The position numbers were made by a program, and so were the translations under genes. The notes under the pieces are model-generated. The model ran no database searches. It was not told the origin of the DNA and saw only the letters and a program-made list of their open reading frames with translations. Of a stretch of DNA of 64,000 nt, positions 2,713-52,967 are shown one piece after another. Origin of the DNA: an uncultured Candidatus Saccharibacteria bacterium (lineage in GTDB: Bacteria > Patescibacteriota > Minisyncoccia > Phycocordibacterales > CAYSCM01); contig CAYSCM010000001.1 of the NCBI GenBank assembly GCA_964429815.1, forward strand, positions 352,001 to 416,000. Reading direction: 5' to 3'. Numbering within the stretch: position 1 is the stretch's first letter; every line of letters begins with the position of its first letter.

Positions 2713-4488
2713 TCAGCGTCCGCCCGTTTGTATCCGGACGTTGCCACCGCCGCGGGCGCTCCCGATGAGGCTCGGCGCTTGTTGCGTCACTGTCGTCGCA
2801 GCGGATATGGTGCGGGAGATTATTTGTTCTCCCTCGTCGAGACCCGAGGTTATTTCAACCGCGCTGTCGCTCGTGAGCCCGACCGTGACCGGCGTGCGGA
2901 TCGGTGTCTCGCTCGTCGTAAGGCCCTGTGCCGAGTCTGTGGACGTCGCGACGGGCGGGTTAAAGACCTCGACGTAACTTGCACCGCCTTGTGATTTGAC
3001 GGCGGAGGAGGGGACGATGAGCGCGTCCGTTTTGCTTCCGCTGATGATGGCGGCTGAAACGCTCATTCCAGGCTTGATGTGTGCGTCTTGGGTATCGAGA
3101 TGAATGTCAACGGTATAGGTGACCACCCCCTGCGAGACGGTGCCCACCGTATCGACCGATGCGACTTCACCGGTGATGGAAAGCCCGTCGATGGCGTCGA
3201 AGGTAAGGGTGGCCTTCTGTCCCACCCTGACCTTCGCGACATCGACCTCGTTTAGGGTTACCTCGGCGAGTTGATCGGACGTTACGAGCGTGGCAACAGC
3301 GCTCCCCGCGCTCACCGAGTCGTATTTTTTAACGTTGACCTTGGCAAGCGTTCCCGCGAAAGGCGCGTACACGGCATAATTGTTTAGTGTCTGCTGCGCA
3401 TCCAAGAGCGCGTTTCGTCGCTGCAACAACGTGAGCTGGGAGGATTGAATATCAAGACTATCCGCGCCCGCCTTTAATTTTTGAAGCGACTGTTGCTTTT
3501 CGAGAATCGTCGACGTAGCGGTCTCTATCGCCGTTTTGTTCGTCAGAAGGCTTTGCACGTCGCCATTGACCTGTCCCGTATACGTCCCGAGATTGGTGAG
3601 GTAGACAGTGAGCGTCGAAGGGATCGCAAGTGAGTGCTCGGTGAGCCGGTCTTTTACGAAGTTGTAGAGATCGGTCGCGCTTTTAATAGCGTCACTTATC
3701 TTTTTGCTGGTGTCATAGGATTCACCGATAAGGCCGGTAAGGGTGCCGGCGTCCGCGCCACGAGAAGTAGCTTTGTAGTCGGCAAACGTTTTGTTGTAGG
3801 CATCATTCGCCCCTAGGTAGGCAGCGATGGCGGCATCTTTGTAGGTTGTTACGTTGTTGTCGAAGAGGCGAACCATATCAGAGAACGCGGAAGCGTTGTC
3901 TTGCGTGTTTCCTCCGACATTGTTGTGACCATAGAGGGCGTCGTAGAGGCCGCTCATGACCGACGGCAAATTAAGGAACGCATTACTTACAGAGCTGAAA
4001 CCATTATCAAGACCTTGGCTGTAATCGCTTTGCGCTTGAGAGAGCGCGTTTTGGGCCTGCGTCAGGGAGAGCGTGTCCGCTGGCTCCGTCAATTTTTGAA
4101 GCGCTATCTGGGCGCTTTGAAGGTTAGCCTCCGCGTCTCGCACTCCTTTTTGCGCGTCGGCGCTGTCGAGGGCGACGATAAGTTGCCCTGCATGGACGAC
4201 CTGCCCCCGCGCGGGGCTTACGTATACGACGTCGCCTCCCGCTTTAGGCTTAAGGTCGATTTGCTGCGAAGCAAGAACCTGTCCGGTACCGGTCACCGAG
4301 GAGACGATGGTTCCGCGCTCCGCCCTAGCGAGCACGTAGCGCGTCTGACTCGGCGTCGACGAAAAAGCGCCATAGGCGTAATAGCAAAATCCAAAAAAGG
4401 CGAGAAGGGAAATAGCCGAGGTAATCTTATGAGCTTTTGCGCGGGCAACCATACGCATAAGAAAACGACTATTAGGAGAAGATTTCAT
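2713..4488 (-). CDS. HlyD/MacA-family periplasmic adaptor (efflux membrane fusion protein)
   Basis: 591 aa; N-terminal TM, long coiled-coil-like Q/A/L-rich region, C-terminal beta-barrel-like domain; first gene of a 3-gene efflux operon on the minus strand. Confidence 0.8.
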   Translation of the reverse strand: MKSSPNSRFLMRMVARAKAHKITSAISLLAFFGFCYYAYGAFSSTPSQTRYVLARAERGTIVSSVTGTGQVLASQQIDLKPKAGGDVVYVSPARGQVVHAGQLIVALDSADAQKGVRDAEANLQSAQIALQKLTEPADTLSLTQAQNALSQAQSDYSQGLDNGFSSVSNAFLNLPSVMSGLYDALYGHNNVGGNTQDNASAFSDMVRLFDNNVTTYKDAAIAAYLGANDAYNKTFADYKATSRGADAGTLTGLIGESYDTSKKISDAIKSATDLYNFVKDRLTEHSLAIPSTLTVYLTNLGTYTGQVNGDVQSLLTNKTAIETATSTILEKQQSLQKLKAGADSLDIQSSQLTLLQRRNALLDAQQTLNNYAVYAPFAGTLAKVNVKKYDSVSAGSAVATLVTSDQLAEVTLNEVDVAKVRVGQKATLTFDAIDGLSITGEVASVDTVGTVSQGVVTYTVDIHLDTQDAHIKPGMSVSAAIISGSKTDALIVPSSAVKSQGGASYVEVFNPPVATSTDSAQGLTTSETPIRTPVTVGLTSDSAVEITSGLDEGEQIISRTISAATTVTQQAPSLIGSARGGGNVRIQTGGR

Positions 4489-42493: not shown

Positions 42494-42566
42494 GCCGAGG
42501 TAGCTCAGTTGGTAGAGCATTTGTCTGAAGAACAAAGGGTCGCCGGTTCGATCCCGGCCCTCGGCA
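42494..42566 (+). tRNA. tRNA-Phe (anticodon GAA)
   Basis: Acceptor GCCGAGG/CCTCGGC, D-arm gctc-agttggta-gagc, anticodon stem tttgt/acaaa loop ctGAAga, T-arm gccgg-ttcgatc-ccggc, discriminator A. Confidence 0.9.
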
Positions 42567-42573
42567 CAAAATT
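42552..42573 (+). repeat. direct repeat copy 1 (tRNA-Phe 3' end, tcccggccctcggcacaaaatt)
   Basis: 22-bp segment spanning the tRNA-Phe T-stem 3' side, acceptor 3' strand, discriminator and 7 nt beyond; repeated identically at 42735-42756. Confidence 0.9.
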
Positions 42574-42734
42574 GAAATTGCCTGGACTGGCTCCAGGCAA
42601 TTTCAACTTCTGATGAGGGATCGAACCTGGAAGGGGTCGGGAAACGGGAGTTTCCCGTCGAGGAAAACAGCGAGCTTGCGAGCGTTAGAAACCGCGGGTT
42701 TCTAAAGAGCTGCGCAGCAGCTCAGGAGTGAGAT

Positions 42735-42756
42735 TCCCGGCCCTCGGCACAAAATT
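42735..42756 (+). repeat. direct repeat copy 2 (tRNA-Phe 3' end)
   Basis: Identical 22-mer 183 bp downstream of copy 1. Confidence 0.9.
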
Positions 42757-48192: not shown

Positions 48193-48620
48193 AATGCTTC
48201 GTTGGAGATCTTCTTTTGCAACCAACAATCAATAACCCGTTTGCTTGAGGTAAACATTGGGGAGGGGAGATTCTTCGGGTCGACCCATTTCCAGTTCCTG
48301 CTTTTTTCCGGTTCAGCATCATATGGTTCGCCTTTTTCTGACTCAGCGAGAATTCCAATGGTGACGTAGTGCTTGTTTTTCGCAGGGTAAAAAATAATAT
48401 CGTTGTTGACGCAAATAATCCCTTTTATTCGAATATCTTTGAGTCCGGTTTCTTCTTGAACCTCCTGCCGAGCGCAATCGGCAAAGGATTGTTCAAATTC
48501 TAAATGGCCTCCAGGTATTTGGAATGTTCCTGCTCCGCCGGACTTAGATAGGCGCTCCCCAATGAGGATGGTATTGCCTCGAGTTATCAAAATTCCGATG
48601 CCGATGTATGGTCGATCCAT
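48189..48620 (-). CDS. NUDIX hydrolase
   Basis: Nudix box GGHLEFEQSFADCARQEVQEETGL. Confidence 0.82.
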   Translation of the reverse strand: MDRPYIGIGILITRGNTILIGERLSKSGGAGTFQIPGGHLEFEQSFADCARQEVQEETGLKDIRIKGIICVNNDIIFYPAKNKHYVTIGILAESEKGEPYDAEPEKSRNWKWVDPKNLPSPMFTSSKRVIDCWLQKKISNEAL

Positions 48621-48621
48621 G

Positions 48622-48640
48622 GTGCGCGGTAAGGGACTCG
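48622..48640 (-). repeat. direct repeat copy (tRNA-Val 3' end, gtgcgcggtaagggactcg on + strand)
   Basis: 19-bp identical copy of the tRNA-Val acceptor 3' side/discriminator region, 198 bp downstream (tRNA sense) of the tRNA and 1 nt from the NUDIX start codon. Confidence 0.9.
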
Positions 48641-48819
48641 GTCACGAATAATCTACTCGTCGTCGCTCGCAGATTTTCGCGACCCCGGCTCGGTATCAAA
48701 AGCTGCTGCTTTTGATATACCTGCGCCCTTCGAGTCCCTTATGGAAGCGACACTGGTCGCTTCCTCCCGCGCAACAACGAAATTAAAAAACGATGGCAGA
48801 AGCCATATTTTTTAATTTA

Positions 48820-49171: not shown

Positions 49172-49194
49172 AGAGATAGTGTAGCAGATTTCGG

Positions 49195-49267
49195 CGACCC
49201 TACCGGGATTCGAACCCGGGTTACCGCCGTGAGAGGGCGGTGTCCTAGACCACTAGACGATAGGGCC
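49195..49267 (-). tRNA. tRNA-Glu (anticodon CTC)
   Basis: RC fold: acceptor GGCCCTA/TAGGGTC (one G-U), D-arm gtct-agtggtcta-ggac, anticodon stem ccgcc/ggcgg loop ctCTCac, T-arm ccggg-ttcgaat-cccgg. Confidence 0.8.
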
Positions 49268-49575
49268 TCGCTTCGCTCGGCCATGCCGCCGTCGCTCGTT
49301 CGGAAATGAAGGTGCACTTTCATTTCCCTCACTTCGCTAGACGATGGGGCCAAACACGGCGATTCTAGCATTTTCTCCTCCAAATGCTAGGATGACGTGC
49401 GTAGTTTATCAAACGGAGAGGTGGCTGAGTGGAGAAATCGCGAATAGCTTCGCGATTTCTCCGATCCGCGAAGCGGACGTGCCGATGTGAGCGAGCCTAC
49501 CGGCGAGCGAGAAGGCACGAGGTGGACGAACTTGTTCGACCCTCAGCTTCCATTTAGTATGGGCGAAGCCCATAT

Positions 49576-49662
49576 GGAGAGGTGGCTGAGTGGTCGAAAG
49601 CGGCGCCGTGCTAAGGCGTTAGGGGCGAAAGTCTCTCGTGGGTTCGAATCCCACCCTCTCCG
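49576..49662 (+). tRNA. tRNA-Ser (anticodon GCT)
   Basis: Acceptor GGAGAGG/CCTCTCC, D-loop GG, anticodon stem gcgcc/ggcgt loop gtGCTaa, long variable arm, T-arm gtggg-ttcgaat-cccac, discriminator G. Confidence 0.9.
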
Positions 49663-49664
49663 CA
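49645..49664 (+). repeat. attL-like repeat (3' end of tRNA-Ser GCT)
   Basis: cgaatcccaccctctccgca. Confidence 0.8.
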
Positions 49665-49715
49665 AATGTTGCCTATAGGGACAGAACAATCTCGATTTCC
49701 TGTTATACTTTCGTT

Positions 49716-50441
49716 ATGGCGAACCTTGAAGGAGGACCCAATTCGAACGTCGAAAAAGAAAAGAAAATCCGAGAAGCAGAACAAGAGCTTGATTCAATCG
49801 ATCTGAATCCGGACAAACTTCGCCCTCTCTCGCCTGATGAGATCCACAGTCTTCATAGTAACCTCGCCGATCTTCTCTACTCAGCAGAAACAACTAGAAC
49901 GTTAGCTGACTTACCGGACTCTCCCGAAATTCGAGGGATCAGTGGGGAAGAACAAACCCGAATTGCGATTCAGAAACTCCATGAACGCGGTCAAGAGCTT
50001 CTTAAGAAGACCATTGACGACGAACGACTCCGTGCCGACCTGACTGAAAAAATTAGAGAGTATCATCGCTCAAACTGGCGTGAGGCTTTTGCGAATGAAA
50101 TCACCCAAGGACGAACGCCTTTCGGCGATGCGAGTAACTCGATTATTGAATTTTACCGAACCAAGGGGATCAATATTGAGAATCCGACGGAAGAGGACAT
50201 TGATAAGTATTTTGAGCGAAAAGAATACGACGCTGCAGCATTTGGCCTTGAATTTAAACGCCGACGTCGAAAACAGTTTGCGGATATGGATAACCAGAAG
50301 TTTTCCGATTTTCAAAGTTTATTTTGGCGGATGTTTAGGGTGCCTGATGGGCATGGATGGTTCACAACCCTTATGAACGGCAAGGCGTTTGTGCAGAAGC
50401 TCGACGAAATCAACGAAGCTCTGAAGCATAAAACTCCATAG
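49716..50441 (+). CDS. hypothetical protein (island cargo)
   Basis: 241 aa from MANLEGG (ORF-track N-terminus overlaps the tRNA and was trimmed); acidic, helical, low GC. Confidence 0.5.
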   Translation: MANLEGGPNSNVEKEKKIREAEQELDSIDLNPDKLRPLSPDEIHSLHSNLADLLYSAETTRTLADLPDSPEIRGISGEEQTRIAIQKLHERGQELLKKTIDDERLRADLTEKIREYHRSNWREAFANEITQGRTPFGDASNSIIEFYRTKGINIENPTEEDIDKYFERKEYDAAAFGLEFKRRRRKQFADMDNQKFSDFQSLFWRMFRVPDGHGWFTTLMNGKAFVQKLDEINEALKHKTP

Positions 50442-50773
50442 GGGCATAGGAGACTGTGTTTATTTATGCCAACACGATACCACTTTTTCTTTTTCTAGCC
50501 TGTATGGCCGATTTCCACGCCATGCAAAAGACAGATCTCTTTGATACACTCTAATCGCTCCATGAAGATTGGATCGCGTAGCTGTATCCGGGTTCGAACA
50601 TCGTTCAGGCCTGCCCGCTCGGACCGGTAAATGTCCAGATAGGTCAATTTTGAAAAAGAGCCTTATGAAATGGGCCTCTTTTTCGTCTCCCAAATTCGCC
50701 AAAAAGGTTCGAATCCTAACCAGTCTCTGCTTCCTCACCTTGGTGATGTATATTTAGGCCATCATTTTAATCT

Positions 50774-51427
50774 ATGGTGCCAACCGAGATTATCCTGGCT
50801 AGTGTAAGTTCTCCTTTTGAAATTGGCGCACAAATCGCCGAGATTATTATTGCGGCAGGGACAATTGTGGGGCTCGGGTTTTCGATATGGTTTTCGCGAA
50901 GAACTCTGCAACGATCGGATTGGAATTCAATAATGACTACCGCTCCCAGCATTGCGATCGAGTGTCGTAGTGATGGATTTTGGTTGAATGATAGGCCAAC
51001 TGCCGGAGGTTCTTGGGGAGAGCCCACACGCCATCTCGAACCTTCAGGAAAGTACGTCACCTTCGCGTTGAGATTTAGAATCTCAAATCAGGGGAGGGGT
51101 CTAGCACTTGCTATTAAGCCCGAAGTTTCTTGTAAGGCGAAAGCTTGGGTGGGAGGGATTCAGAATTTCCCTGTTTGGATGGGCACCGACAATGAGGACA
51201 AATCAGATCTTGCTGTTGACATACAGGAAGAGGACTTCAAATGGCTCGAACTGATGAAAAATCCTTTGCATTTGGCGCTGAGCATTAGCTACAAAAATGA
51301 CCAGGGCAACATTGCTTGCACCTCTAGGTGGTCGGCTAACCTGCAACCGTTTACAGTTAATGGAACTCGTCTTGAAATATGCCGGGACCGAATCCAAGAG
51401 CCTAGTATGCAAATTACTTATAGTTGA
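50774..51427 (+). CDS. hypothetical membrane-anchored protein (island cargo)
   Basis: 217 aa with N-terminal TM, low GC. Confidence 0.5.
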   Translation: MVPTEIILASVSSPFEIGAQIAEIIIAAGTIVGLGFSIWFSRRTLQRSDWNSIMTTAPSIAIECRSDGFWLNDRPTAGGSWGEPTRHLEPSGKYVTFALRFRISNQGRGLALAIKPEVSCKAKAWVGGIQNFPVWMGTDNEDKSDLAVDIQEEDFKWLELMKNPLHLALSISYKNDQGNIACTSRWSANLQPFTVNGTRLEICRDRIQEPSMQITYS

Positions 51428-52107
51428 CTCGAAAAACTGTGAAATTCGAACTCAAAAAAATCAGAAGAAACACCCCAGATGACGAACTTCTTAGTGATCT
51501 GAAAACTACAGCAACAAAGTTAGGACAGCAATTTGTCACGAGGGCTCAGCAGGACCAATTTGGAAAATTTGATAGCTCGAACATGTCGAGGCGACTAGGG
51601 GGATGGGCAAAAGCTCATGAGCGTGCTGGTCTTAGGCTTGCACGTCATCAAAAGAGTCTGAAAGCTTCAGAAAACGAACTATTGCAAAATTTGGAAGAGG
51701 TTTGGACAAGGCTAGGACGACAACCGAATAGTCAGGATATGTTTGCTCCTATCTCACGCTTTGGCGTGAGTGCGTATAAACGCCACTTCGGCAGTTGGAT
51801 GAAAGCTCTCGAGAAGTTTGTTTCGATCGCAAATTTTGAGGGTGCTTTGACAAATGGATCGGATGAGGAGACTGTTGTTTCTGGGTCAAAGCGTAGGACA
51901 AAGCGAGAAGTCAATTGGAAGACGCGCTTTCTTGTAATGCGTCGGGATAATTTCAAATGCAAAAGTTGTGGACGGTCACCGGCTACGGACGCTGGAACTA
52001 TTCTCAATGTGGATCACATAAAGGCCTGGGCGAATGGGGGTGAAACTGTCCTAGACAATCTACAGACCCTATGTGCGGTCTGTAATCTGGGCAAAAGCAA
52101 TCTATAA
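51424..52107 (+). CDS. HNH endonuclease with N-terminal tandem helix-turn-helix-like repeats
   Basis: C-terminal HNH motif VMRRDNFKCKSCGRS...VDHIKAWANGGETVLDNLQTLCAVCN; two N-terminal repeats (...RRLGGWAKAHERAGL / ...KRHFGSWMKALEKF); 4-nt overlap with the upstream gene. Confidence 0.72.
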   Translation: MTRKTVKFELKKIRRNTPDDELLSDLKTTATKLGQQFVTRAQQDQFGKFDSSNMSRRLGGWAKAHERAGLRLARHQKSLKASENELLQNLEEVWTRLGRQPNSQDMFAPISRFGVSAYKRHFGSWMKALEKFVSIANFEGALTNGSDEETVVSGSKRRTKREVNWKTRFLVMRRDNFKCKSCGRSPATDAGTILNVDHIKAWANGGETVLDNLQTLCAVCNLGKSNL

Positions 52108-52247
52108 GGCATCCGGCGGCAACCCCATTCCTTCCTGTTTCAATATCCAGCGGATTTCCTCGCTCAATAATCACTCCTAGACAATCACACACGTTTTGGT
52201 TGTATGTGCTCAGAAGTACATTTGGCCATGCAAGGGAGTGTCTGCTA

Positions 52248-52517
52248 ATGAGCATGAAACCTACCCGCATAACTTTTGAAAATCCAAAATACGGCAAGGT
52301 TGAGTGGACTTTGCCCGAACACGTTGAAACAGCGCTCGCCGCCAATGCTTCATCAAGTGCTGAGATGGAGGAGGCGGTGAAATTCTTAGCACGAACAACA
52401 GCCAAAGTGTTCGGCACGATTGTCTATTGCTTCACTCTAGGCAAATTGCCTGACCTCGACGCTTTCCTTGGTCAATTCGCGGAAAAAGGCGAAGCGAAGC
52501 CACCACCCTCTCACTGA
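52248..52517 (+). CDS. hypothetical protein (island cargo)
   Basis: ~89 aa from MSMKPTRITF. Confidence 0.3.
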   Translation: MSMKPTRITFENPKYGKVEWTLPEHVETALAANASSSAEMEEAVKFLARTTAKVFGTIVYCFTLGKLPDLDAFLGQFAEKGEAKPPPSH

Positions 52518-52555
52518 GACTTTCAGGACGTACCCTAGCGGTACGTCCCTTCTTT

Positions 52556-52732
52556 TTAGTCAGACAGCTCCTTACCGTCTCGTCGGATTTCTTCCCGCAC
52601 CCACTCTCGAAGCCTCGCCTTTCTAACGGCTTCCTTTTCCAGTTTTCGCATCTCCTTCTCACTCTTGTCCGGCCAGTCAATTTTCACACCCTGGCGAGCG
52701 CAAACACGTTTGATAAGATGAAAGCGCTCCAT
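52556..52732 (-). CDS. hypothetical small basic protein (island cargo), start inside internal repeat B
   Basis: MERFHLIKRVCARQGVKIDWPDKSEKEMRKLEKEAVRKARLREWVREEIRRDGKELSD; a truncated homolog (MERLECIKEICLLHGVEIGHTG) starts at 50563 (-) inside repeat A. Confidence 0.35.
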   Translation of the reverse strand: MERFHLIKRVCARQGVKIDWPDKSEKEMRKLEKEAVRKARLREWVREEIRRDGKELSD

Positions 52733-52947
52733 GAACGATGGCTCGCGTAGCCATAGCCGGGTTCGAACGTCGTTCAGGCCTGCCCGCAACGGTTTGTAAG
52801 AATGCTCCGGTGGAGCATTCACGCAAAGCGTCGGATTTGTCGTGAGGTGGGATTCGAAAGGCGGAGCCCGACAAACGCAAAGCGTTTGTTTCGGGCGAGC
52901 CCGGGCAGGAGCCACTTTCCGCCGGAGGCGGATTAGTGAGCTGACGC

Positions 52948-52967
52948 CGAATCCCACCCTCTCCGCA
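52948..52967 (+). repeat. attR-like repeat (copy of tRNA-Ser GCT 3' end)
   Basis: Identical cgaatcccaccctctccgca 3.3 kb downstream. Confidence 0.8.

Follow-up and report, generated by a model that had tools for sequence, protein, structure and literature searches.

Several described systems target or interrupt transfer RNA (tRNA) genes. Phages, integrative conjugative elements and genomic islands are integrated into tRNA genes by tyrosine integrases (Reiter 1989 and Williams 2002, as cited in PMC9897764). Homing-endonuclease cassettes and group I introns are found in Patescibacteria tRNA genes, the introns at position 35/36 (bioRxiv 10.1101/2025.07.03.662931; PMC13011429), T4 SegB provides a further comparison among homing endonucleases (PMC2330249), and archaeal tRNA genes may be disrupted by non-canonical introns or be split or permuted (PMC3293823). 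Here we describe a family of small structured inserts at tRNA genes, analyzed from a 64,000-nucleotide window of an uncultured Candidatus Saccharibacteria bacterium (GenBank assembly GCA_964429815.1, contig CAYSCM010000001.1, positions 352,001 to 416,000 of the forward strand). No published description of this family was found in Rfam 15 or in the literature, of which our coverage was incomplete, and the nearest accounts concern the group I introns at position 35/36 and the tRNA fragments left by large integrated elements. Integrase-mediated integration, attC cassettes and CTX-type elements, elements resembling short interspersed nuclear elements (SINEs), homing cassettes and group I introns, and miniature inverted-repeat transposable elements (MITEs) each fail at least one of the defining features that we tested. 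Insertion into a tRNA gene with restoration of that gene is known in kind, while its mechanism here stands a real chance of being new.

The first-pass annotation of the window had listed seven tRNAs, and this list was reproduced with ARAGORN and Rfam. All seven genes are contiguous and complete, which excludes a split, permuted or intron-containing tRNA in the window. The genes for tRNA-Glu(CTC) and tRNA-Ser(GCT) are divergent, and the region that they enclose contains the following features:

49193-49267, minus strand: intact tRNA-Glu(CTC) (ARAGORN; Rfam tRNA, 62.3 bits)
49268-49335, minus strand: Glu-side insert of 68 bp (sequence; architecture and alignable sequence shared with relatives L009 and L017)
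49336-49351, minus strand: displaced old 5′ end of tRNA-Glu, matching nucleotides 1-16 at 14 of 16 positions (sequence; adjoins the ancestral spacer)
49352-49414, no strand assigned: ancestral divergent Glu/Ser spacer of 63 bp with two -10-like boxes (full-length alignment to the spacers of relatives; promoter-like site on the minus strand)
49362-49370: -10-like box ATTCTAGCA, which reads TGCTAGAAT on the minus strand
49385-49393: -10-like box TGCTAGGAT
49415-49432, plus strand: displaced old 5′ end of tRNA-Ser(GCT), nucleotides 1-18 exact (first direct repeat, DR1; sequence repeat)
49433-49575, plus strand: Ser-side insert of 143 bp (RNA fold; homologue in the tRNA-Ser(CGA) insert of L011)
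49576-49663, plus strand: intact tRNA-Ser(GCT) (ARAGORN, Rfam)

As the annotation had noted, nucleotides 1-18 of tRNA-Ser(GCT) (49576-49593, the DR2 copy of the 5′ insert) are repeated exactly at 49415-49432 with a spacing of 161 bp. Across 200 shuffles of this flank the longest exact match was 10 nt, compared to 18 nt in the real sequence. The near-copy of the tRNA-Glu start, GGCCCCATCGTCTAGC (49336-49351, minus strand) versus GGCCCTATCGTCTAGT at the gene, is identical at 14 of 16 positions and lies 84 bp from the gene start to start, with 68 bp in between; its longest exact run is 9 nt and shuffles also give 9 nt, so that it is not significant when taken alone. The Glu fragment was accepted because of the synteny alignment and because homologous inserts are present in L009 and L017. 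The tRNA-Glu and tRNA-Ser genes stand head to head in 33 loci, and in relatives without inserts they are separated by a spacer of 50-65 bp carrying two conserved -10-like boxes. Positions 49352-49414 align end to end with the complete spacers of these insert-free relatives, and the tRNA-Glu copy abuts the spacer at the point where the intact tRNA-Glu of relatives begins. Since the 63 bp between the two fragments correspond to the whole spacer of the relatives, the fragments mark the original gene starts. The alignment thus indicates that each fragment is the original 5′ end of its gene, and that tRNA-Glu was shifted outward by 84 bp and tRNA-Ser(GCT) by 161 bp through insertions in the D-loop region that left intact genes. 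In each case, the old gene end remains beside the old promoter and the intact tRNA gene lies on the other side of the insert. The divergent -10-like boxes (CTAGCAT...ATGCTAG; 49365-49390) form a 9-bp inverted repeat that is kept in the Glu/Ser spacers of relatives. An independent assembly (Logan SRR12313482) is identical throughout the region, which excludes an assembly artefact. Three Logan contigs of the same organism (L001, L002 and L205) start or stop within tRNA-Ser(GCT) (49576-49662); such breaks would fit strain variants around the gene.

The Glu-side insert consists of a GAGCGAAGCGA motif beside the gene, a perfect 9-bp hairpin (49302-49327) with CCGA directly after it, and a linker. 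The near-copy and the hairpin are real as first described, except that the loop has 8 nt (ggtgcact) rather than 7. Homology to the insert preceding tRNA-Ser(CGA) in L011 extends over the length of the Ser-side insert, which contains the following hairpins and stems:

49433-49460: perfect hairpin
49465-49477: TCCGCGAAGCGGA
49478-49519: stem
49521-49541: hairpin
49559-49573: last hairpin

The first of these is the perfect 12-bp hairpin that had been reported directly 3′ of the Ser fragment; it grows to 14 bp (49431-49462) when the GG of the fragment is paired with the CC that follows the hairpin. In addition, CTCAGC(T) at 49542-49548 is predicted to pair with nucleotides 9-15 of the fragment, and a promoter-like TTGTTC-17-TAGTAT is found at 49532-49560. 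The predicted RNA fold of the Ser unit has an energy of -80.2 kcal/mol (z = -7.2), and no open reading frame (ORF) is present in either of these 5′ inserts. The hairpin had been described as simply fused to the fragment; instead, it forms the opening stem of a larger folded module, and this module pairs with the fragment. Perfect hairpins whose stems reach at least 9 bp are frequent in this genome (about 28 distinct ones in the window, versus about 2 list entries per shuffled window), so that they are informative solely by their fixed place beside the fragments. A TCCGCC-N-GGCGGA hairpin is common to the Ser-side insert, to the end of the island behind tRNA-Ser(GCT) described below and to relatives' inserts that carry GIY-YIG nuclease genes; it was rejected as a family marker, being just about 3-fold enriched near tRNAs.

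At the 3′ side of tRNA genes, the window contains the mirror image of this arrangement:

42574-42734, plus strand: insert behind tRNA-Phe with a core other than type A, bounded by a 22-nt repeat (42552-42573 / 42735-42756)
48622-48640, minus strand: old 3′ end of tRNA-Val, an exact 19-nt copy from C56; 1 nt (C) and then the ATG of the NUDIX gene come next
48641-48819, minus strand: insert behind tRNA-Val with core A (covariance-model score 93.5 bits)
49664-52947, plus strand: island of 3.3 kb behind tRNA-Ser(GCT), GC content 0.46, two tandem units
52948-52966, plus strand: displaced 3′ end of tRNA-Ser(GCT), 19 nt exact from T-loop C56
27776-27858, plus strand: orphan degenerate core A with a shortened closing stem (covariance model 52.1 bits, E = 2e-12)

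The annotation had reported repeats at tRNA-Val and tRNA-Phe, and by sequence comparison these are exact over 19 nt (Val, spacing 198) and 22 nt (Phe, spacing 183). Shuffled flanks never exceeded 9-11 matching bases, and the three exact repeats of 18, 19 and 22 nt are therefore far beyond chance, while a match downstream of tRNA-Ser(GGA) (9 nt exact) falls within it. In the direction of the tRNA, the Val insert comprises a hairpin resembling a terminator, the tRNA 3′ end in inverted orientation with a hairpin interrupting it (48729-48741 and flanks) and, at 48632-48738, core A. In most relatives tRNA-Val ends 0-5 nt before the ATG of the next gene, and the window keeps this junction at the distal fragment; because the tRNA-Val of relatives abuts the next ATG, the distal fragment and the NUDIX ATG represent the ancestral junction between tRNA and gene. 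The start of the gene after tRNA-Val, at 0-5 nt, at times overlaps the encoded CCA (window 48618-48640; L008, L009, L014, L045, L058 and others). This spacing suggests tRNA-messenger RNA (mRNA) co-transcripts in which tRNA 3′ processing would make the mRNA 5′ end and so give leaderless mRNAs.

The Phe insert has a perfect 15-bp hairpin (42572-42606) and an inverted copy of the T arm (42615-42627), and its core is invisible to the covariance model of core A. Relatives hold at least three core types, namely A, B (L011, L017 and L046) and the Phe type. The sequence CTGATGAG in the Phe insert was considered as a hammerhead and rejected, as Rfam gave no hammerhead match. For tRNA-Ser(GCT), nucleotides 70-88 serve as DR1 of the 3′ island. 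This island has a degenerate middle repeat (50706-50730), and about 90 nt of conserved sequence recur in both of its tandem units, as does a small minus-strand ORF (MERF...). Its cargo includes an HNH homing-endonuclease gene (51424-52107; Pfam HNH and HNH_repeat), and Pfam gave no domain beyond these for its other ORFs. At its end lie an inverted tRNA copy (52844-52858) and a core A (52849-52956; 87.4 bits). The orphan core A is located 15 nt upstream of tRNA-Ser(GGA) and has no tRNA on its own upstream side.

The Glu and Ser cases are the 5′ class of a large family, and the 3′ class is its mirror image in the T loop, almost always at T55|C56. When 80 Paceibacteria genome loci and the window were searched for exact tRNA-terminal repeats of at least 12 nt within 450 nt, such a repeat was found at 22 of 210 tRNAs, or about one in ten; a wider set of 1.6 Mb contains 22 cases of the 5′ class, and this architecture is seen across some 200 independent contigs. 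The genes around the inserts in the window encode TsaD, NUDIX and DUF5652 proteins, which together with their best relatives assign the window to the Paceibacteria/Kaiserbacteria part of Patescibacteria. Elements of the 3′ class consist of the intact tRNA, an often perfect and sometimes terminator-like hairpin, an inverted stretch, a core of about 90-110 nt and the displaced tRNA 3′ end. The inverted stretch reads as the 3′ part of the tRNA in reverse complement, with the acceptor strand first, then a bulge or hairpin, then the T stem and ATTCGAA. In the 5′ class, the displaced 5′ end is followed by a perfect hairpin, more hairpins, a fragment-complementary stretch, a short promoter-like spacer and the intact gene. 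The displaced end runs to the D loop, or to the anticodon loop in some relatives, and the hairpin is usually followed by CCG, which is predicted to pair with the GG of the D loop. Both classes are oriented as their tRNA, both have the inverted copy about 90-110 nt from the distal repeat, and they have modules in common (hairpins with ACUGCU loops, TCCGCC...GGCGGA hairpins and CGAG repeats), in agreement with the earlier suggestion that the 5′ and 3′ cases belong together.

Among 74 cases with a distal repeat, the repeat has a median length of 19 nt and a spacing that is mostly 132-200 (median 172). It starts 18 nt before the tRNA 3′ end, at C56, in 35 of the 74. Its outer end is variable and often runs into the flank, extending to +8 nt or further in 9 of the 74. 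As a DNA pattern, core A has matches in at least 120 metagenome contigs, and about 85 of 123 matches lie at most 100 nt downstream of a same-strand tRNA of nearly every isotype, while some follow transfer-messenger RNA (tmRNA). The tmRNA genes with a 3′-class element behind their tRNA-like 3′ end (L114, L126, L158, L170 and L183) lie beside smpB where this is visible. In L107 and L136, core A is placed behind a non-tRNA sequence (…GGTCAGTTCTGAAAGCCAAGCTGAGTGGTCATGCG), located about 150 nt upstream of the core. This sequence may represent a different small RNA at its 3′ end, perhaps the signal recognition particle RNA, in which case the target range would be wider.

The core is conserved as a structure. 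A covariance model of core A, for which seven cores were used, detects three copies within the window (in the Val insert, at the end of the Ser(GCT) island and the orphan upstream of tRNA-Ser(GGA)), 29 copies in genome loci and 113 in 100 metagenome loci. In the 113 copies, 92.6% of the cells are paired, compared to 71% after shuffling and 31-42% with slid partners, and compensatory changes occur in 19 of 20 pairs. G.U pairs outnumber A.C combinations (67 versus 18), which favours the tRNA-sense strand as the one that folds, as RNA or as single-stranded DNA. The core begins with GGAUUCGAA, which is complementary to the T loop, and the inverted stretch is complementary to the local fragment, including acceptor-specific bases and sometimes the flank. 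Since the stretch pairs with the local fragment, the unit resembles one half of the neighbouring tRNA, that of the acceptor and T arm, in which a large insertion takes the place of the T loop. In both classes, the folded module abuts the displaced fragment and is predicted to pair with it, giving an acceptor/T-arm-like stem that closes a multi-hairpin core. A kissing loop between the CUGC of the junction hairpin and the GCAG/AGCA loops of the core was also considered and rejected, because these loops do not consistently co-occur. When the whole window was searched against Rfam 15 at gathering thresholds, and both tRNA regions at E up to 10, only tRNAs were found, and the weak matches were at chance level. 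The core is therefore presented as a candidate structured RNA or folded-DNA class without an Rfam entry, and the module may act as an RNA in processing or regulation. These searches, together with the comparisons with known systems, agree with the statement of the annotation that no catalogued feature type fits.

Several observations bear on the movement of these inserts. At orthologous tRNAs of relatives, inserts are present or absent, and the core type at a given tRNA differs between genomes. Long spacings are tandem stacks of two elements with differing cores behind one tRNA. In L139, the cores at tRNA-Gly and tRNA-Pro are 90% identical, and the Pro copy retains the tRNA-Gly 3′ end and a Gly-type complementary stretch and is joined to Pro inside the T-loop bases that the two tRNAs have in common. 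In L157, the cores at two Ser loci are 96% identical; at tRNA-Ser(CGA) the 19-nt exact repeat is the target's own, the complementary stretch is of the source type and a 24-nt local duplication is present. At the second of these two L157 loci (3350-3600, minus strand), core A interrupts the T loop of a gene resembling tRNA-Ser(UGA), whose acceptor, D and anticodon arms are intact and which has no restoring duplicate; this gene may be a pseudogene or a tRNA that needs removal of the T-loop insert. On the minus strand of L139 (575-720), a copy of nucleotides 1-36 of tRNA-Pro is found 74 nt upstream of the intact gene. This 36-nt copy ends in the anticodon loop, which shows that anticodon-loop breakpoints occur too. 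A piece of the same tRNA (Pro 40-61) lies downstream of the gene.

Some members carry cargo, and the long versions with cargo include the island of the window and L115. GIY-YIG ORFs were found in eight 5′-class inserts (L025, L032, L055, L113, L151, L166, L183 and L197), two of them confirmed by Pfam and six identified by inspection; in these inserts the displaced 5′ piece reaches nucleotide 24-35. Short GC-rich perfect palindromes such as CCTGCCTGCGCAGGCAGG break the 5′ pieces of the GIY-YIG inserts in the D loop (in L151, in the anticodon loop), and the identical palindrome of the CCTGCCTGCGCAGGCAGG type is found at tRNA-Glu in L025 and at tRNA-Leu in L197. Like the homing cassettes and group I introns of Patescibacteria, the inserts target tRNAs, have some HNH or GIY-YIG carriers and commonly occur as ORF-less relatives. 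In contrast to those elements, they lie outside the mature tRNA, are unspliced and have their breakpoints in the D and T loops rather than at 35/36; no Rfam intron match was obtained even at E up to 10, and the tRNAs are contiguous. MITEs and palindrome-associated elements derived from IS200/IS605 are also about 100-200 bp long and ORF-less, with hairpins near their ends, oriented insertion and many copies, whereas the inserts have no usual terminal inverted repeats, show a variable duplication of 12-28 nt, target a structural position of the tRNA gene and have no identified parent insertion sequence. Their inverted stretch pairs with the flanking fragment and not with the opposite end of the insert. 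The disrupted tRNA genes of archaea likewise have breakpoints in loops, including the D and T loops, and tRNA fragments beside mobile DNA. They differ in that the host here is a bacterium, the functional gene is contiguous and no bulge-helix-bulge signals were noted.

We propose that the inserts are small, non-autonomous mobile elements whose targets are tRNA loops and whose insertion duplicates the end of the gene, and we assign this reading a probability of about 70%. Insertion at a conserved site, restoration of the gene, membership in a family, strand-specific structure, patchy distribution, tandem stacking and recent copies at different tRNAs are directly supported by the data; we infer that the ORF-less elements are non-autonomous and are mobilized in trans. 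The idea of the annotation that the fragments are products of tRNA-targeted insertion is thus borne out. Its suggestion of relics left by repeated integration and excision of larger elements does not hold, as the inserts form a discrete family with covarying structure, are typically 132-200 bp, lack integrase genes and stand in tandem. Displacement by an element bringing its own tRNA copy comes close, with the difference that the duplicated end mostly includes local flank, which points to a target duplication and not to an imported tRNA piece.

The fixed T55|C56 junction, the variable outer end of the duplication and the untidy far side of the young copies, which shows variable extent, local duplication and template-switch-like chimeras at microhomology, lead us to propose nicking followed by target-primed copying. 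A nick within the T loop or D loop of the tRNA gene would allow the nicked strand to prime copying of a structured template complementary to the loop. Either RNA, with the need for a reverse transcriptase, or donor DNA could serve as this template, and a second, staggered nick would be made beyond the gene end. The HNH and GIY-YIG nucleases carried by some members are candidate nickases.

A number of points weigh against this proposal. Simple copy-in fails to produce an inverted stretch that matches the local tRNA, as is seen in most elements, and the local match would have to come from correction at a later stage, from selection or from spread that is mainly between orthologous sites. The 5′-class breakpoints, after nucleotides 12, 15, 18 and 21 and in some cases 25-36, are less uniform than the T-loop breakpoint. 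The L139 copy carried the 3′ end of its source tRNA and the L157 copy did not, so that the two young copies yield no single clean rule. No reverse transcriptase, integrase or transposase was found in or beside any insert examined, with no genome-wide co-occurrence computed. Contig look-ups for this genome gave no empty-site or circle-junction sequence. In addition, the covariation of core A was counted on a model-fitted alignment, which somewhat favours structure.

In its most specific form, the proposal makes the elements a bacterial counterpart of SINEs: RNAs that mimic the acceptor/T arm, recognize the loop by base pairing and are copied by target-primed synthesis, with a staggered nick that regenerates the gene and with HNH/GIY-YIG nickases, possibly also a reverse transcriptase, acting in trans. 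We put this version forward tentatively, at well under even odds. Like tRNA-derived SINEs, R2 in rRNA genes and other retroelements that move by target-primed reverse transcription, the inserts are small, non-autonomous, structured and tRNA-related, have a conserved RNA-gene target and a variable target duplication, and may show one fixed end with variable extent and template switching at the other. The fixed C56-type junction and the duplication are seen across the 74 cases, and the variable far junctions are documented in two young copies only. Unlike those retroelements, they are found in a bacterial host, have no 3′ tail and restore the host gene by duplication.

An unlikely but serious alternative is that the inserts are miniature integrative elements moved by a tyrosine recombinase (an integrase or Xer) supplied in trans. 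Recombination would then be conservative and take place in the T or D loop, with the folded module as attachment site and the repeats as attL and attR. The classic signature of integration into tRNA genes, a repeat of the tRNA end together with a restored gene, is present: the inserts are delimited by direct repeats of the tRNA end and lie beside an intact gene. The T loop is a known sublocation of integrases, and integrated elements also stack behind one tRNA. The repeat of the 3′ part is found at tRNA-Val, tRNA-Phe and the Ser island and is absent at the Glu/Ser 5′ cases; integration at the 5′ side is not a known habit of integrases, which counts against this alternative. The inserts also differ from integrase-mediated integration in being 84-200 bp long and ORF-less, without an integrase and with a covarying core, and in having an inverted copy that pairs with the fragment, a 5′ D-loop class and a variable outer end of the repeat.

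The attachment site would perhaps be used as folded single-stranded DNA, as in attC cassettes and CTX-type integrative mobile elements exploiting Xer (IMEX). Stacking at the restored site resembles CTX/IMEX arrays and integron cassettes, which likewise have ORF-less units, a regenerated target and a strand-specific fold. The imperfect palindrome beside the crossover point is present and strand-specific here, although the bias of G.U over A.C comes from a model-fitted alignment. The inverted copy at about 90-110 nt from the distal repeat would fit a stem-loop circle opened in one arm, versions with cargo exist (the window island and L115), and the L139 segment spans exactly from T-loop site to T-loop site. 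Against this, the target is a tRNA loop and not attI or dif, the core is conserved whereas attC centres vary, and the far junctions are untidy. The outer repeat boundary varies, often into the local flank; the target-derived repeat, source-type inverted stretch and messy far junction of L157 are unexpected from conservative recombination; and a circle this small, 110-200 nt, would be unusual as a substrate. No integrase was found in or adjoining any insert or island examined. Among the ORFs of the window island Pfam identified only the HNH protein, and inspection of L115, L042 and other long cases gave no recombinase, the rest of the genome not having been searched; apart from an HNH gene, the cargo of the window island, L115 and L042 is of unassigned function; likewise, no recombinase adjacent to the elements links them to IntI or Xer, a link for which no genome-wide test was made. 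Viral contigs scanned with the core pattern gave one chance match, in a high-GC contig without a tRNA, and no phage with the module.

It is considerably less probable that the modules are immobile cis-acting RNA devices of the host, derived from local partial duplication of tRNAs and serving as tRNA-like processing or termination signals that preserve processing of the RNase P or RNase Z type. The structure is conserved on the tRNA-sense strand, the acceptor/T-arm-like fold ends exactly at the old tRNA 3′ end and abuts the next ATG, terminator-like hairpins directly follow the tRNA in 3′ inserts and a promoter-like site is present within the Ser 5′ insert, all of which such devices would explain. 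They would not explain one core behind nearly all isotypes and tmRNA, its patchy presence at orthologous loci, differing cores in tandem arrays, copies 90-96% identical at different tRNAs of a genome with chimeric junctions, the orphan degenerate copy in the window or the nuclease-gene cargo of some members. The distribution of the modules thus makes a purely host-serving origin unlikely. Chance similarity or an assembly artefact can be practically dismissed, for only the Glu fragment alone and the tRNA-Ser(GGA) match lie within the shuffle range, compared to exact repeats of 18, 19 and 22 nt against a shuffle maximum of 9-11, and the independent assembly is identical and the architecture recurs in some 200 contigs that are independent of one another.

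In the tiny genomes of Patescibacteria, most tRNA genes exist as a single copy. Nevertheless, roughly 10% of the tRNAs examined in relatives bear at least one insert. The inserts exploit the T and D loops, which are the most conserved sequences in biology, and lethality is avoided by duplication of the gene end and not by splicing. The displaced fragments and interrupted pseudo-tRNAs will mislead tRNA finders and break assemblies at tRNA genes. The elements also place terminator-like and promoter-like signals between tRNAs and closely abutting genes. Judging from the terminator-like hairpins, the tRNA-like end before abutting genes and the TTGTTC-17-TAGTAT of the Ser insert, the modules may matter for expression. 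If targeting by base pairing is true, the elements would offer a possible programmable insertion tool, and if the SINE-like reading is true, they would represent a previously unknown RNA-guided, self-repairing colonization of essential genes in the smallest bacterial genomes.

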